Source: a candidate division FCPU426 bacterium
GTDB taxonomy: Bacteria; Oederibacteriota; Muellerivitia; Muellerivitales; Muellerivitaceae
NCBI GenBank assembly: GCA_963738405.1
Contig: CAVTWJ010000006.1
Coordinates: 1 to 19,958 of the forward strand
Length of the DNA: 19,958 nucleotides
Direction: 5' to 3'
Part shown: positions 6,001-12,000 of the stretch, one piece after another
Layout of the letters: each line of letters begins with the position of its first letter
How positions within the stretch are numbered: position 1 is the first letter of the stretch
Made by a program: the position numbers

Positions 6001-9000
6001 TGCAATGGTAAAGCTAGTTGGTGTCACGAGCAACTCCTTATGTACATGATGATGTACATTTTATGCCCAAAGTTTCTCCGTGGCAAGTACTGATTATTGC
6101 TTTCTTAGGTGTCCACGATGGGTCCCCGCCGTGGACAAGGTTTTTAACTATTCGAATAATATAATTTTAAGGTTTTCGATCAACTTCACCTTATCGATCG
6201 GGTTTAACTCCCCCAAATGCTTGACGAACCGGCGGTTATCAATGGCCCGGATCTGATCAACCAAAATATCGGAGTCTTTCTTGAGGCTGGTTCCCTTTTT
6301 GGAAAGGTGAACCCGGAGTATCTCCGCTTCGCGAATGACGTGGGTGGTAACGGGACAAACAATAGTGCTGGGGTGTTGACTATCGTTTAAAAGGTTGGTT
6401 TGGAGAACGACGACCGGCCTTTTCTTGCCCGGCTCCGTCCCGAACCGAGGGCTTAGATCGGCCAGGTAGATATTAAATTTCCTGATTTTCATTCAAGGGT
6501 TGCTTCTTCAAGTTTTTCCATCTCACTCAGGATATCCATGGAATTATTTCGCGTTAGCAGGGATTCTTTTTTTAATATTTGACGAAGTCCTTTGCGCCGG
6601 TTGAAAGCGTTATAAAAATCCAACGCCTCATTGATGTAGGTGTTTCGGGGCATATGAAGACGCTTGGTTTGGACTTCCACGTCCTCGAAAATCTCGTCTT
6701 TAATTTTAAGGGAAAGCACTTTGGTCATTTCGGGCTCCTTTGGGGGTATATACGAATAGTATATCCCTTCAAAGACCTTCTTTCGAACCCCTTCGCTTCA
6801 TTCACTCAATCGGGCTGGATCAATTGTTGTTTTAGCGGTAAAATAATTTACATGAAATTAACAAGCCGAACCAAGCCGTTCCTGATCGTTTTGATCGCCG
6901 CCCTGCTCCTGGTGGGGAGCGCGGGAGCCGCCTATTACGTTAAAAAAGGCGGGCAGCCGAATGACATCACCCTGCGCGCGGCCCGTCTTCAAAAAACCGA
7001 ATTGGACTTGGAATTCCTAAAGTCCGATCTGTCACGGCTTCAGCAAAGTTTGGAGGCCCAGCCCCAGGGCCGGATCTTATCGGATGAAACCCAGATCTTG
7101 CGGGAACGGATCAGCGGTGAACAAGCCGGCATCGAAACCGAACTGATGCGAATCACGGAGGATGCGGGGTATTTGCGCAGGCACTGGGCCGCCCTGACCC
7201 CTTCGCAAAAGGATTTGGTGGATTCGGTTCAGAAAAACCTTACCTAGTTCCCCGTCGTTTCATTCCTAGAAAATCCCCCAGGTTGATCAAAGTCTCCCCA
7301 TTGCTGCGATTCGCGAACCCTCGAATTCTAAGATTCTTTCTTGAGCGCGGGGTAAGGATATTTCAGCAGCCAGTCGAGGGCTTCCTGAAAATTCGTGAAG
7401 ACCCCGACGGGCATTCCCCGATTGGTCGCCACCACTTCGCCGAATTTTACGGGGTCCATCAGGGGAGGGTTCGCCACCACGGAGAACCGGCACTTTAGAA
7501 TTTCCCCTTTCGCCAAGGCGGTATGATATTTTTCAGCCCCGGCGGTCCCCATCGTGAAGCGCTGCAGGGTGGTGAGATTTCCCTCGGCCTTGCGAAGATC
7601 CGCCAGGACCCTGGTGTATTGATGGGCGCGGGCCGCCTCAATGAGCAGTTCCGGAAATTGGGTGGGGAAGAGTTCTTCCACGGCACCTTCAAAGGTCATG
7701 TGGAGGTAATTGGGTTTGATCTCGGTGGTTAGGTTCACGGTGGGGAATATTAACTATTTTCTACTCAAAAACAAGGCCCTGGCCAGGGGCCTTTTTGGGG
7801 GGCAACTCCAGCCGCTGAATAGGCCGGACCCCAACGTTCATGGAAATATGACCTGTCCAATCTCACTGCACCAAGCCGGGGGCTTGGTGCTCCCCGTTGT
7901 GGACAGCAAACCTAAAAAGTTTTCAAAAAGCTGGATGGATTCAGGATTTAAATATTTTGGTAGGTTCCGACATCCAACAGGGCCTTATCGCCCGAGACAA
8001 TGAATTCAGCTCCTCCCGCCAGGGCGGCTGCGATAAATTTATCATCATCGGGGTCCTTGCAAATGCCTCGAACAGGCTTAGCGTTCACCATTTCGCAATT
8101 CAATCTGATTAATTCCAGGAAGGGCTCAACTTCGACTCCAGGATGCCCCTTGGAAAAGTCTTCCATAACGCGGCGGTATTCTTCGAGAATTTCCAGGGAC
8201 ACCAATAACTTGAAATCACCACGTTCCCAAGATTTGAGGACTTGGTAAGGTGTCCCCATCCAGAAAAAACCAGAGACAAGAACATTTGTGTCTATGACAA
8301 CAACCCGTTTCATTTACCGCGTCGAACGCGGGCAATGGCGGCCTTCACGTCTGATGGGCGTAATCCGGCGGCACGCGCCTGCTTTCGCGCGGCGGCCAGC
8401 AGGCTGCCAAGTTGGCTCAACGAAGGCGGGGTAATGGCTTTGAAAATCACCGAATCTCCCTGGCCCATCACGACAAACTGATCCCCCTCTTTGAGGCGCA
8501 AACTCTTGCGGATGGATTCGGGAATAACGACCTGTCCCTTCGAGGAAAGCTTTGTGGTTGCGATGGTCATAGGTTACCTCCGAGTAATCTTACCAGTAAG
8601 AATACAACCGAAATCTAATCAATACAATCCACCGCTCACTCCAATGCTTTTATGGGACTGGGATCATCAGGGCGCAGATGCGCAAATGCCTATATAAGCA
8701 TTTGCACCGCCAAAACTCACACGCCAATGCTTTTTATGGCATTGGGGTTATCAAAGCGTGCGCCTTAGCTTGAGGCTAAGGCGCAGATGCACAAATGCCT
8801 TCATTGGCATTTGCATTGCCAAGACTCACACCCTAACTGGAAGTTAGGGTGTAGGCACCCTTTCCACCCGGGTCACCTGTGGGCCTTGCGCACCTTCATG
8901 CACCCAAACCTTCAAGTCGATCGGCTGGGTGGAAACAACTTCCCCCGGGTAATGCTGGTCGCTTTTAGTGATCACCACACCCTCTATCAAAAACTGGTCC

Positions 9001-12000
9001 GAAGCGCCGTCGGTGCCCACCCATTGAGGAGGCTGGGTGGGTTTGAAGTAAGCCACCCATTTTTTGTCTTGGATTTCCTGAATCTTGGCGGGGGGGTAGT
9101 TTTCGTAGAAGAACTGGGCCTGGTAGCCATCAACGATTTCGCTTTTCAGGTTCGCCAGCCAGGTCGGGATGTCGTGGTAGCTGGGGCCGAAAGCATCGTC
9201 GGCGAAGATTTTTAGGAACATCTGGTACGCGGTGACCTTGGCTTGATCCTTGGGGGAAAGGGTGGGGGCCGCCTGGGTCGAGCCTTCAAGGCGAGACCCA
9301 AGACTTGGCTGTGCCGATTCCTTAGGGGAACCGGCCGCCTGGGTCGAGCCTTCAAGGCGAGACCCAAGACTTGGCTGTGCCGATTCCTTAGGGGAACCGG
9401 CCGCCTGGGTCGAGCCTTCAAGGCGAGACCCAAGACTTGGCTGTGCCGATTCCTTAGGGGAATCGGCCGCGGCGGGCGTAGGCGCGGGTTTCTCGCTGAC
9501 CACGACCGTGGCGGTATGTTTTGAAGTTTTCAAAGCGGCTCGTTTAGGCTCGATCTTCTTCACAACCGTTGCGAGAGTTGTTACCGCCATGGTTTGCGGG
9601 GCCTGATCGGCCTTGGGGGCCGAGGGGGCTGGTTTACTCCAAGAGGGAATAAACCCTTTAAGCCGGGCAACCAGATCGCCCGGATGAAACACATAAGTCC
9701 AAATAAGCCAAACCACCAACAGTATCGCCCCTACCCGGAGGAACCATATCACCACCGGCCCCAAGACCTTTTTCAAGCCGCTCCAGAGAAGATGGCCCAG
9801 GGCCGCGGCTTGTTTTTTCATTTCCTTGAAAACCCACCCGACCATGTGCCAGAAGAGCTTCCAGAGGGTCACAAGGGTCTTCCATAGGATTTGCCCCACC
9901 GCCTCCCAGGGGTTCTTGGCCAGCTTGCCAAAGATGGCCTTAACCCCCGCCCCCTCAAAGCCTTGCCAGACCTGTTTAAGGTCTTCCCCAAGAGTGGCTT
10001 GGGTCTTAGCTGTCTTGCTAGGGTTATGCCTTGTAGTGTGCTCAGCGGGCTCTACTTTAGGGTCTGCCGGTCCCTCGGCTTGCGTATCTATAGCGGGGGA
10101 CGAACCCTGCGTTTGGGCCACCTGCCCAGTCACGGCGGGTTGCTGCGGAACAACCGCCTTGGCGTGGGGGTTGTAGCTTTCGGGCTCATTGCCATCCTTA
10201 ACCCATTTGACCAGGCCTTTGGTTTCAGGCTCGGTTAGGTACTCATCGAAGACCTTCCGTAGGGCCCTTTCGACCTTGGCCGGGTCCCCAAGGTCGGCTA
10301 ATACCAGGAGGATGGACTCAGTTATCAAAAAACCCTTATTTTTCGTGCCCAGCGGCTGGGCATCCGAAATAAGGCCTTTTTGAAGATTTTCATCCACCAA
10401 GGCTCGGGAGGCTTGGTTGAGGGCTTTTGTAATCTTAAGGGCGTTATAAACTTTAGAGTCGGACACACCTTCCCAATCCGCCAATTCCCTTTGGGTCATA
10501 TTCGGTTGGTCTTCATGGTCAATGGCTATAGCCACATCCCAATCCCACCAGTCCATATCCTCATGCAGGTTGTCCAGAACGGCCTCATGGTGGGTCTCCC
10601 TTGGTTGGATATCATCCACGATGCATTTCAGGGTCTTCCATTGGTTAAGGATCGCCGCCGCCCGTCTTCGGTGACCGCCTATGTGCATGACCCAGTTACC
10701 GGGGTTGGCCGCCCGCTCTTCGTCCGTAAGGGGCCGAACCCTAACCGGGGTTCTCTGCCCCTTGGCTTTCATGGAAGCCGCCAGTTCCTGGATGGTTTCC
10801 TTCTTTTTGGACCGTCGGGGCTGTTTGGGGTTTTCGAGGATCTGGTCGATGGGGATTTCGACGACCTGGCCGATGGGATAGGGAAAGTCTGCTGGGACGG
10901 ACATAGGGACCTCCAAATAGGTGCTGAAAGATACTTTCCTAGCCCATTGGCCTCAAACCAATGGGCGGGCCTTGGTTATACCAATGCCCATAGAAGGCAT
11001 TGGTACATTACGGTGAAAATAATTCAGAGTCTTTTGGGAGGCAATTGGAAAATGAATCGGAAAGCCTTTTTTACCGGTCAAAAAAAGTGCAGTTTTTATC
11101 CCCTACAAAGATGTAACAGACCCATTGGAAAGTTAAGCGTTGGGGCGGTTTCTTGAAGGGTGTTGTTAATTTGAGATGTACGATAACGGTGTGATCGTTT
11201 CAGCAAATCCTAAAGTGTTAAGCGTTGGTCTGAACTCTTTTAAATTTATAATCAATTTCTGGAGATGGAGTGAATTGGATGAATTTTAATTTTGATAAAT
11301 TTTGGCGCGATCCGGTTTGGAGTGCGGTTATTGCGGCATTGATAAGCGGTGGCTTAATAGGACTTGTTCCGTATATTCATGCTGAATGGCCAAAGTTTCT
11401 CATTGGGATAGCTTTAATTTCCTTGGGGCTTGCGTGGTGGAAAATCAGCAAACTGCCAAGGTTGCAAGTCGAAATGAAAGTAGAAATGGATGAAAATTTA
11501 CCTCATGCCCCAATTATTCGTCTCGAATTCAGCAATTCAGGCTCCAAACCGATTTATGTCGTTTCGGCGGAATTCGTGACCAAAGAAAACTGGGCAATAC
11601 CTGATCCCGTAAGGTCGGGAACAATGCAGCCGGTGGTAAATTTTTTACCAAAGGGTGAAAAGTTTATTAAAGTTTCCAGCCAAAAGAATTCGGCGGCCAA
11701 TAAGGCTATAGATTTAACCCTAGAGCCTAAGAAATCCTCATCCATGTCATTTAGGCTCATTACGGACGAAATGCCTTTTTCCGGGCTAGGCCTTTTCCCC
11801 TTTTACCTGGAAGTTAGTTTGATATATGGGGAAAACGGTGATTTGCGAATCCCTTTACCCGATATTATCGTAAGCCTGCATGGTGGTTTATCTGTAAGTT
11901 ATGTCCAATTTGGCGGCCCGCAACCCTTAACCATCAAGCCGAGCGATTTAAAGAATCTTGCCAATATTGTTTTAAGCAAAGTGAATAAGAAGGTGCTTTG

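Follow-up and report, generated by a model that had tools for sequence, protein, structure and literature searches.

A ParB-like protein of a candidate division FCPU426 bacterium that combines a ParB-type head with a predicted transmembrane helix and a predicted VirB8-like fold

What is the role of a ParB-like protein that carries a hydrophobic helix and a further C-terminal domain, and that occurs as eight paralogues beside the canonical ParB (C14, 33171-34037) of the same genome? We addressed this question for a gene on contig C6 of a candidate division FCPU426 genome, within a window (the whole stretch of DNA analysed) of 19,958 nt. The open reading frame at 8844..10916 on the minus strand, the strand of all features given below, is genuine and encodes a membrane ParB-like protein of 690 aa if read from TTG (P0001). 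Translation probably starts at the ATG at 10904 instead of this TTG, giving 686 aa, because GGAGG is located 5 nt ahead of the ATG and the database copy P0002 is 686 aa long. P0001 has a four-part layout, consisting of a head with ParB_N and a ParB-type helix-turn-helix (HTH), a W-rich juxtamembrane stretch, a strong predicted transmembrane helix, and a C-terminal module of 140 aa.

An earlier note on this DNA had listed eight such paralogues, and besides the C6 gene the seven others were recovered exactly, at C19 25491-27605, C5 30577-32877, C23 8188-10269, C22 49033-51501, C1 103701-105878, C23 146116-148545, and C16 45785-47905. Its Pfam values for ParB_N were likewise reproduced (E 3.8e-12 in C6, 1.1e-10 in C19, 2.1e-8 in C5, 1e-4 in C23_8188, and 1.7e-3 in C22), as were the seven matches of the genome-wide ParB_N scan and an HTH_ParB match with E 8.9e-6, which belongs to C23_8188. 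The Pfam cut-off for ParB_N is exceeded by just three of the eight proteins. Those from C16, C1, and C23_146116, described before as having weak or no ParB_N scores, had no Pfam match; their heads match the P0001 head directly, with E-values of 1.2e-7, 6e-20 (head plus membrane part), and 1.2e-9.

The ParB_N (CTPase-fold) domain of P0001 comprises residues 17-118 (10563..10868), contains the motifs NPKQPRR, GGHRRRAAA, and LDNLHE, and was recognised by Pfam, TIGR00180, the scan of the genome itself, and motif and PDB alignments. PF02195 matched these residues with E 3.8e-12 and 46.5 bits (cut-off 26.3), and TIGR00180 (ParB/RepB/Spo0J partition protein) spanned residues 17-169 with 69.1 bits against a cut-off of 58.45, in agreement with the 69 and 58 bits reported earlier. 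A ParB-type HTH DNA-binding domain with a helical extension occupies residues 113-255 (10152..10580), as indicated by TIGR00180, PDB alignments, and hhalign. Pfam HTH_ParB was under its cut-off in P0001 (E 0.051, 14.2 versus 22.6 bits), and phmmer alignments to 4umk, 1vz0, and 7ol9 extended to residues 174-183, which places the HTH after the N domain. Across the solved ParB, Spo0J, Noc, and KorB proteins, phmmer aligned the N domain in all and the HTH in all except KorB. ParB-type domains were the only ones reported for P0001 by Pfam and NCBIfam, neither of which detected an OmpR-type winged helix. ParB_C (PF23552), which matches the canonical ParB with 1.6e-15, was not found in P0001 or its paralogues.

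With the canonical ParB of the genome as the reference for pocket motifs (GERRWRAA, IENLQRSDL), the nucleotide-pocket boxes of the C6 protein read QPR, GHRRRAA, and DNLHE, compared to QPR, GERRxRA, and ENLQR: the E of the ENLQR-type box is replaced by D, its Q and R are gone, and the third R of GERRxR is shifted. All 33 aligned membrane-bound members (33/33) keep the G and second R of GxxR, the N of (D/S)N, and the proline in NP(R/G). The GxxRxxA patch had been described as kept in four paralogues and degenerate in four; this division holds for an RR pair, which is present in C6, C19, C5, and C22, but not for strict GxxRxxA, which is present in all eight. ParB/Srx domains have diverse activities, and half of the paralogues have degenerate CTP-pocket motifs, so that ParB_N might act here as a ParB/Srx-type enzyme (nuclease, kinase, or NTPase) on a substrate, not as a DNA clamp, and the membrane protein would then have no role in tethering DNA. 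We regard this as highly improbable, given that a complete ParB HTH domain always follows ParB_N, that relatives with an HTH only are linked to arrays of DNA sites, and that TIGR00180 scores above its cut-off. Judged by its sequence, the head of P0001 is a diverged yet recognisable ParB_N plus ParB DNA-binding domain.

Behind the head, residues 330-387 (9756..9929) form a conserved, W- and K-rich juxtamembrane stretch that appears amphipathic from its sequence, its identity among paralogues, and its sub-threshold hydropathy; residues 304-484 are 61% identical to C23_8188. It leads into a single strong predicted transmembrane helix at residues 388-406 (9699..9755), with a Kyte-Doolittle mean of 2.46 over 19 residues. 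Hydrophobic segments are thus present as the earlier note had stated, one strong segment in P0001 and, at a threshold of 1.0, a block of four each in C19 and C22. Exactly one strong segment is found in 32 of the 54 family proteins of at least 400 aa. Further downstream, an in-frame tandem repeat of 66 bp in 3.1 copies (9267..9470, 99% identical) encodes a 22-aa linker unit. The peptide motif of this unit was seen again in other family members.

The C-terminal part, residues 546-690 (8847..9281), is a domain that we call module A. Its AlphaFold model has a pLDDT of 94, and Foldseek returned 36 matches with E-values no higher than 0.001. In VIA-align the top 13 rows were all VirB8-like proteins of type IV secretion and conjugation (Z 11.5-15.6; 15.6 for 5cnl, 15.4 for 3wz4, 15.1 for 6iqt, and 13.6 for 2cc3), while generic NTF2 folds ranked under these with Z of 11.4 or less. 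According to this model, module A has a VirB8/DotI/IcmL-like NTF2 fold. It is carried by the C6 gene and four others of the eight, and the remaining 3/8 carry a different domain, module B, which has a PH-like part at residues ~41-178 (Z up to 8.6). The last ~140 residues of module B gave weak matches to HtrA, DegQ, and CtpA and, once among the three members, a PDZ_2 match with E 0.016; a PDZ-like part behind the PH-like one is weakly supported. The earlier note had spoken of PDZ-type or other C-terminal modules; the label PDZ-type holds at most for the end of module B and does not apply to the C6 gene. A remnant of module A was located behind one module-B gene.

The fold behind the helix has so far been solved only as a periplasmic or intermembrane domain of single-pass proteins, and for this reason P0001 probably spans the membrane, beyond mere anchoring. 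A cytoplasmic DNA-binding head, a single membrane-spanning helix, and a module A located in the periplasm are consistent with a crude hydropathy scan, with the analogy of folds, and with three relatives of ~210 aa that consist of an N-terminal signal anchor and module A, and nothing more. In C19 and C22 the four segments lie ahead of the same module A, and with an even number of passes it would be cytoplasmic there. The earlier reading, in which ParB is joined to a membrane anchor, is supported by the diverged ParB head, the hydrophobic helix, the recurrence of this architecture in distant relatives, and purifying selection at both ends; it is incomplete in that a folded domain lies behind the helix.

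Fourteen membrane-bound members are encoded in the genome, with heads, membrane blocks, and C-terminal modules shuffled. Some lack ParB_N and have the same membrane blocks and modules A or B as the ParB_N members; homology between their HTH-only heads and residues 113-255 of P0001 was established by hhalign (probability 98.5, E 2.3e-15). The genome has six such array-linked relatives, not three. Upstream repeat arrays accompany all HTH-only genes (6/6 here and 20/20 in other genomes, 15 of the latter 20 with strict 21/22-bp phasing) and none of the ParB_N-bearing genes (0/8 here, 0/20 in other genomes), a dichotomy that may reflect few independent events because the two head classes are clades. 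The arrays comprise 5 to 19 repeat units, putative binding sites, in front of the gene itself. That the eight paralogues lack such arrays had been noted before, and indeed, in the 700 bp ahead of each gene, no 8-mer occurs more than three times. Both ends of the protein are under purifying selection, with dN/dS of 0.15-0.35 where dS is unsaturated (C6 versus C19: head 0.20, module A 0.24). Among C6, C19, and C23_8188, identity is 79-82% in module A and 36-73% in the heads.

Several of these features would also suit a transmembrane transcription factor of the ToxR/CadC type, in which the periplasmic module senses a signal from the envelope or from outside the cell and the head switches near or distant promoters, like cytoplasmic KorB/VirB, with no tethering or partition involved. 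The predicted layout is the same, with the DNA-binding domain in the cytoplasm, a single membrane-spanning helix, and a folded domain on the outer side. The single-pass anti-sigma factor RsgI9 senses the outside through an NTF2 domain (7sjy, Z 11.1), and the PH-like and PDZ-like parts of module B belong to folds that bind ligands or peptides. In the array-linked relatives the sites lie right at the promoter of the gene itself, as autoregulation would have it, and several paralogues have leader sequence in common. However, the 14 membrane-bound members have just two kinds of outside module between them. Modules resemble each other more than the heads do, which would put many DNA specificities on one input, and no conserved regulated operon adjoins the genes. 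We consider such a factor unlikely, although it is the most probable of the rivals.

The flanks of the C6 gene are not featureless. Its 5' leader contains two perfect palindromes with a CCAATG core and arms of 9 and 10 nt (10942..11005), which sit in an insertion of ~82 nt; the rest of the leader is common to C5_30577 and C23_8188. A row of five hairpin-forming palindromes begins at the stop codon (8630..8852; MFE -101.6 kcal/mol, z -6.5), and homologous rows were found only behind other module-A genes. In five genomes family genes have a 25-bp palindrome beside them. Genes of both head classes have palindromes close by, and these are candidates for parS-type sites. Pfam detected no ParA-type gene in the window or within ~5 kb of the seven other paralogues in either direction, and no conserved partner gene and no type IV secretion genes were found beside any of the eight.

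The family has a narrow, patchy distribution. Its module A was found in 11/99 genomes of the phylum with 1-12 copies each, all within one taxonomic family, and is absent from the same-genus genome G003 (99% complete); only 52 representatives were found among 1.84 billion proteins. In a Pfam scan of 37 module-A proteins, ParB_N was present in 14, and the sole other family was a single HTH_37 match. The C6 gene is located in a toxin-antitoxin-rich stretch, with PIN, MazF, AbiEii, zeta-toxin, and IS200-like genes abundant nearby. An accessory or conflict role fits this setting and the patchiness within the genus better than core chromosome organisation. The family could accordingly be an accessory conflict or mobile-element module, either a one-protein maintenance device by which an island or plasmid is fixed at the envelope or a membrane effector triggered by foreign DNA, and the mosaic exchange of parts, the module-A remnant behind a module-B gene, and the family-specific palindromes on gene flanks would agree with this. 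We judge it improbable nonetheless, since PADLOC gave no match for the six members searched, no integrase, replication, ParA, or transfer genes adjoin the eight genes, VirB4 (PF03135) was not found in the 90.7% complete genome, the copies lie on large chromosomal contigs, and folded periplasmic domains are atypical for pore-forming abortive-infection effectors.

The explanation that we prefer, and to which we give an even chance, is that P0001 acts as a ParB-type tether or clamp for DNA that is integral to the membrane and has a coupling domain in the periplasm. It builds on what was observed, namely which domains are present, that they are conserved and under selection, and that arrays go with the heads lacking ParB_N. 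P0001 would be a single-pass inner-membrane protein with its N-terminal 255 residues, the CTPase-fold N domain and then the ParB HTH, in the cytoplasm. The place of the C-terminal dimerisation domain of canonical ParB would be taken by the long linker, the amphipathic stretch, the transmembrane helix, and the periplasmic VirB8-like NTF2 domain. The head may recognise specific DNA sites, and nucleotide-dependent engagement of N domains, presumably with CTP as in ParB, Noc, and KorB, could keep it on the DNA and let it spread. As the other end of the protein is fixed in the membrane, we propose that the bound DNA would be held at the envelope, while the periplasmic domain might self-associate or contact an envelope partner. 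Relatives without the N domain would compensate by the rows of 5 to 19 binding sites before their own genes. If true, this would be a natural means of pinning DNA to the cell envelope, for which, by a membrane-fixed ParB relative of this kind, we found no description in the literature.

Among known systems, P0001 shares with canonical ParB/Spo0J the N domain and the DNA-binding domain, with the pocket G, second R, and N kept, and its family differs by having no ParB_C and no ParA neighbour, by its eight copies in one genome, and by the predicted membrane helix with an outside domain. Noc of Bacillus subtilis has the same ParB_N plus HTH head (7ol9 aligns to residues 17-180 of P0001, E 2e-8) and brings DNA to the membrane, as P0001 is proposed to do. 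P0001 is not Noc at the equivalog level, scoring 62.2 bits against a cut-off of 315 for TIGR04285. Noc binds the membrane peripherally and reversibly by an N-terminal amphipathic helix under CTP control, as described in PMC8429893, whereas the N-terminus of P0001 leads directly into ParB_N, and an integral helix and an outside domain are predicted toward its C-terminal end. A natural permanent anchor is unexpected, because fusion of Noc to a synthetic transmembrane helix is reported to have broken chromosomes (PMC8429893).

VirB8, DotI, IcmL, TrwG, and CagV have a C-terminal NTF2-type fold in common with P0001 (Z 13.6-15.6, rmsd 2.1-3.3 Å over 119-128 residues), likewise placed after a transmembrane helix. 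Sequence identity to module A is 7-15%, Pfam VirB8 does not match P0001, and the cytoplasmic part of VirB8 is a short tail instead of a ParB head of 255 aa. ARC6/PARC6 of plastid division and the cyanobacterial ARC6-like IMS-domain proteins resemble the layout predicted for P0001, since they pass the membrane once and have an NTF2-like domain beyond it (5gtb, Z 10.8, and Foldseek matches); ARC6-like IMS clusters were also the nearest to module A in the ESM Atlas, with scores of 0.77-0.80 that serve as a lead only. These proteins receive positional information from a partner on the cytoplasmic side and relay it to the other side of the membrane. Their inner domain binds FtsZ rather than DNA, and no relationship was detected at the sequence level. 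The topology predicted for P0001 would be that of the single-pass transcription regulators ToxR, CadC, and TcpP. These bind DNA through an OmpR-type winged helix, whereas P0001 combines a ParB-type DNA-binding domain with a putative nucleotide-switch domain.

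The minus-strand ORF at 8844–10916 spans 690 codons when read from a TTG start, from which the residues of its product (P0001) are numbered here. The true start is probably the ATG at 10904, because a GGAGG lies 5 bases upstream of it and the database copy of the protein (P0002) has 686 residues. P0001 carries a Pfam ParB_N domain at residues 17–118 (E 3.8e-12, 46.5 bits vs. a cut-off of 26.3) and exceeds the cut-off of TIGR00180 (69.1 vs. 58.45 bits), as the earlier note had reported; the Noc-like match that it mentioned is also present, at a score far under the cut-off (TIGR04285, 62 vs. 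315 bits), and HTH_ParB reaches an E of only 0.051. Searching the whole source genome with P0001 gave 23 matches. ORF extraction exactly recovered the coordinates that had been listed for the other seven of eight ParB_N-type paralogues, which we name by contig and, where needed, start position (C6, encoding P0001, C19, C5_30577, C23_8188, C22, C1, C23_146116, and C16). The ParB_N values assigned to them were reproduced (E 1.1e-10 in C19, 2.1e-8 in C5_30577, 1e-4 in C23_8188, and 1.7e-3 in C22), but only three of the eight proteins lie above the Pfam cut-off. C16, C1, and C23_146116 have no ParB_N match in Pfam; their heads match the P0001 head in direct comparison. The HTH_ParB match with an E of 8.9e-6 was found in C23_8188, the genome-wide ParB_N scan again gave seven matches, and the canonical ParB at C14 33171–34037 indeed has all three ParB domains. 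Soluble ParB-like proteins number three in the source genome, two of which are tandem doubles (C14 60064–61683, 539 aa; C22 114980–116650, 556 aa) with two ParB-like units each and no membrane segment.

Among solved structures, phmmer matched residues 13–183 of P0001 to ParB (4umk, E 2.6e-11), Spo0J (1vz0, E 1e-10), and Noc (7ol9, E 2e-8); the alignment to KorB (8qa8, E 7e-4) is limited to residues 18–118. The P0001 boxes KQPRR, GHRRRAA, and LDNLHE compare with NQPRK, GERRWRAA, and IENLQRSDL in the ParB of the same genome, used as reference. Four residues are invariant (33/33) across 33 membrane-bound members, eight of them from the source genome and 25 from elsewhere: glycine and the second arginine in GxxR, asparagine in (D/S)N, and proline in NP(R/G). 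The RR pair varies at its first arginine, and a QPR-type arginine is kept in 24 of 33. With glycine and second arginine invariant, strict GxxRxxA is therefore found in all eight paralogues; the arginine patch previously credited to four members holds at that count for the RR pair, but not for the motif as a whole. By these motifs, the nucleotide pocket of the eight paralogues appears conserved in part and degenerate in part. The heads of relatives that lack ParB_N, share the HTH module, and have repeat arrays upstream (HTH-only or array-linked members) are homologous to residues 113–255 of P0001 (hhalign probability 98.5, E 2.3e-15).

The one strong hydrophobic segment of P0001, noticed earlier, lies at residues 388–406 (Kyte-Doolittle mean 2.46) and is preceded by a conserved amphipathic stretch rich in tryptophan and lysine; residues 304–484 are 61% identical to C23_8188. 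A Kyte-Doolittle count at a threshold of ≥1.6, a crude method, gave one hydrophobic segment in 32 of 54 collected family proteins with at least 400 residues, two in nine, three in seven, four in three, and none in three. C19, C22, and array-linked relatives have another conserved membrane block with four hydrophobic stretches, the first of which (~30 residues, glycine/proline-rich) could, at a guess, be re-entrant.

The last ~145 residues of P0001 constitute module A, one of two alternative C-terminal domains of the membrane-bound family, which is also found in C19, C23_8188, C22, C16, and three array-linked genes and has no Pfam match. An exhaustive HMMER search of 1.84 billion representatives yielded just 52 proteins with module A (E ≤0.001); among the 37 scanned with Pfam, ParB_N was present in 14 and the only other match was one to HTH_37. 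The AlphaFold model of module A (pLDDT 94, 24-row alignment) had 36 Foldseek matches at E ≤0.001, nearly all of which are VirB8-like domains of type IV secretion and conjugation proteins (including IcmL-like, DotI, CagV, VirB8, TrwG, TraM, TraE, and PrgL) or intermembrane-space domains of ARC6/PARC6. A search independent of Foldseek ranked VirB8-like domains in the top 13 places (Z 15.6–11.5), with generic NTF2 proteins at Z ≤11.4. Three relatives of ~210 residues are composed of an N-terminal signal anchor and module A and nothing else. VirB4 was not found in the source genome (90.7% complete), and no secretion genes lie near the eight loci. Together, these results indicate that the predicted fold of module A is VirB8-like, that module A is most likely periplasmic, and that the family does not belong to a type IV secretion system. 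In other genomes, a tail after module A ends in the conserved motif ...(A)KK-x-LG-F/L at the extreme C-terminus (proteins P0008, P0031, P0036, P0038, P0054, and P0022; ORFs in loci L035, L039, and L041); the copies in the source genome are without it.

Module B occurs in C5_30577, C1, C23_146116, and three array-linked genes. Its model (pLDDT 86.7) is PH-like at residues ~41–178 (Z up to 8.6), and its last ~140 residues gave weak HtrA/DegQ/CtpA-type matches and one PDZ_2 match (E 0.016) among three members. The PDZ-type label of the earlier note thus does not apply to P0001, which has module A, but is plausible, although unproven, for the end of module B.

An architecture of cytoplasmic ParB-type head, membrane helix, and periplasmic VirB8-like domain is well supported. 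As to function, which is inferred, we favour a membrane-fixed ParB-type tether or clamp and give it about an even chance. Its main rival, that the P0001 family comprises transmembrane regulators in the style of ToxR, we regard as rather improbable.

An in-frame tandem repeat in the P0001 gene (9267–9470) has 3.1 copies of 66 bp that are 99% identical and code for the 22-aa unit SPKESAQPSLGSRLEGSTQAAG. Peptides related to this unit, with the pattern E-S/P-A-Q-P-S/N-x-G...A-S-x-Q, are found again in family proteins of the source genome and of other genomes, where they occupy linkers, N-termini, and insertions on either inferred side of the membrane. An interspersed DNA element was rejected as an explanation, there being few DNA copies of the 66-bp unit, mostly within family genes. 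All six loose-regex matches to the peptide fall inside family genes, and the recurring linker peptide is family-specific.

The two head classes differ in their upstream regions. In the 700 bp 5' of each of the eight ParB_N-type genes, and of each of the three soluble ParB-like genes, the copy number of any 8-mer is at most three; for the eight, this agrees with the absence of arrays noted earlier. Three HTH-only genes have 7–11 copies of an 8-mer in an interval of the same length. A scan of the source genome for 21/22-bp phasing found 11 arrays, six directly before HTH-only genes and five orphans with no family gene beside them. Four orphans show this phasing (C1 41835–41949, C2 116400–116621, C2 197740–197875, C23 369189–369349) and the fifth has steps of ~42 bp or longer (C18 7543–7786). 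Two orphan arrays have the same unit as a gene-linked array (TTTCAACGG, GTTCAATGG), and the unit TCGCTTAAT is common to two orphans. Considered as targets of ParB_N members, none of the five is near a ParB_N gene. In other genomes of the same taxonomic family (750 bp at the 5' end; 20 HTH-only and 20 ParB_N genes), a repeated 8-mer (4–19 copies) was present at 20 of 20 HTH-only genes, 15 with strict 21/22-bp phasing and five with other periods (7–19 copies), vs. 0 of 20 ParB_N genes qualifying (four unphased copies, n = 1; three, n = 1; two, n = 18), a split that may count few independent events as both classes are clades. Repeat units of the arrays vary from gene to gene. The split is expected if the N domain permits a protein to accumulate on DNA from few sites and its absence is offset by many, and offers a natural experiment on the purpose of the CTP-switch domain. 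Two other repeats of the source genome are 35 copies of a 9-mer with a period of 71–75 bp (C23 63065–65564), which looks like a CRISPR array, and a tandem repeat of 26 copies of a 17-bp unit (C10 29868–30307).

Family genes are also flanked by palindromes. The 5' leader of the P0001 gene is common to C5_30577 and C23_8188 apart from an insertion of ~82 nt, within which two perfect palindromes with a CCAATG core are located (10942–11005); C16 has two copies of a related hairpin element (41149, 43703). Five consecutive hairpins follow from the stop codon (8630–8852; MFE −101.6 kcal/mol, z −6.5). The 3' flank has no T tracts or intrinsic terminator-like site, and Rfam has no match in the window. 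Homologous rows stand solely behind other module-A genes, with copies that differ by compensatory changes, and were rejected as genome-wide REP elements, as copies were found behind family genes only. Other hairpin rows of the source genome, likewise beginning at the stop codon of module-A genes, are at C5 237–685, C23 8023–8120, C14 238562–238836, C19 25326–25358, and C16 45732–45770; behind C5 686–2257 there are six hairpin copies with a 68-bp period. A perfect inverted repeat lies ≤350 bp downstream of 12 of the 17 family genes of the source genome. The 25-bp palindrome TTGAnnTCRCAAWTTGYGAnnTCAA (TTGAGGTCGCAAATTGCGACCTCAA) is shared by three genera. G018 has six copies, G012, G001, and G002 have one each, and the single copy of the source genome (C1:105958–105982) lies 80 bp beyond the C1 paralogue; wherever mappable, the palindrome adjoins a family gene (reversed-pattern control, 0 matches). 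Perfect inverted repeats number 12 in the window vs. 0–1 in shuffles and 18 upstream of ParB_N genes vs. 1.8 expected. Upstream of HTH-only genes they are enriched as well (12 in 19 loci, L059 being dropped for a run of N); the palindromes, which could be protein sites or hairpins of RNA or DNA, are therefore not assignable as ParB_N-specific sites such as parS of the ParB_N members.

Heads, membrane parts, and C-terminal modules are combined as a mosaic. ParB_N heads with one helix end in module A (C6, C23_8188, C16) or B (C5_30577, C1, C23_146116), those with a multi-segment block end in module A (C19, C22), and HTH-only heads with a multi-segment block end in module A (C14_125320, C5_686, C4) or B (C9, C12, C14_238826). 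With dN/dS values of 0.20 (head) and 0.24 (module A) for the pair C6 and C19, both ends are under purifying selection. When C6 is compared with C23_8188, dS is 0.43 for module A but saturated for the heads, which indicates that the C-terminal module was exchanged more recently. Immediately 3' of a module-B gene (C14 238826–240841) is a module-A remnant (C14 238624–238761) that has an internal stop and its hairpin row behind it; this suggests replacement of the C-terminal module through recombination.

The whole-P0001 query matched 34 of 41 related genomes, most of which have just a canonical ParB of ~290 aa; many matches were obtained in the source genome (22 in this search), G018 (20), G001 (17), G002 (13), G004 (13), and G016 (10). 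Among 99 genomes of the phylum that were searched, module A is present in 11, all from a single taxonomic family (10 of 30 when the source genome is left aside), and in none of 68 genomes outside it; it is absent from a 99% complete genome of the same genus. Searching for related public loci with P0001 returned one, L053. Within the window, a dense same-strand toxin-antitoxin run (3788–8570) encodes four PIN toxins, one MazF, and one AbrB/MazE-type antitoxin; integron cassettes were rejected for this row, as inverted repeats fail to mark each gene boundary. The ORF at 13339–14535 joins the N-terminal portion of a polymerase of ImpB/MucB/UmuC type (IMS, residues 10–145) to a beta-lactamase-family domain (144–374), directly follows a UmuD/LexA-type S24 peptidase gene (12878–13339), and could be a fusion or deletion product. 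Patchy distribution and island context argue for an accessory role; an accessory or conflict module, the next rival after a ToxR-style regulator, is a reading that we consider unlikely. All-against-all BLAST of neighbours at the eight loci gave as conserved partners only PIN toxins and small ORFs at some loci, and PADLOC matched none of six members to a defence system.

Common outside modules and diversified heads argue that many DNA specificities meet one envelope partner. Returning to the membrane-fixed tether or clamp, we tentatively propose, as a possibility short of an even chance, a membrane-integral, CTP-gated DNA clamp in which the C-terminal gate of ParB would be swapped for a transmembrane helix plus a VirB8-like periplasmic domain that associates with itself. 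Each clamp would couple a chosen DNA site to the envelope, with the CTP-switch domain and phased site rows as interchangeable routes for loading many copies. If so, at least a dozen proteins per cell, with differing DNA specificities and common outside modules, would attach several loci to a single envelope structure. All functional steps are inferred, for a narrow family of uncultured organisms. New here are the ParB_N-bearing members, the fold identity of module A, the separation of arrays from ParB_N across genomes, the mosaic way in which the parts have evolved, and the flanking palindromes; the VirB8-like fold gains a context outside secretion systems.

Full-text literature searches, limited to journals without subscription, yielded no account of a transmembrane ParB-like protein or a ParB-VirB8-like fusion. 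The known CTP switches of the ParB family (ParB, Noc, and KorB) are soluble or contact the membrane only reversibly. In one study, a synthetic transmembrane fusion that anchored Noc permanently is reported to have led to broken chromosomes (PMC8429893), which makes a natural permanent anchor noteworthy. If a natural family of ParB-like proteins does combine an integral helix with a folded periplasmic domain, cells would be shown to tolerate, and make use of, permanent connections of DNA to the envelope.
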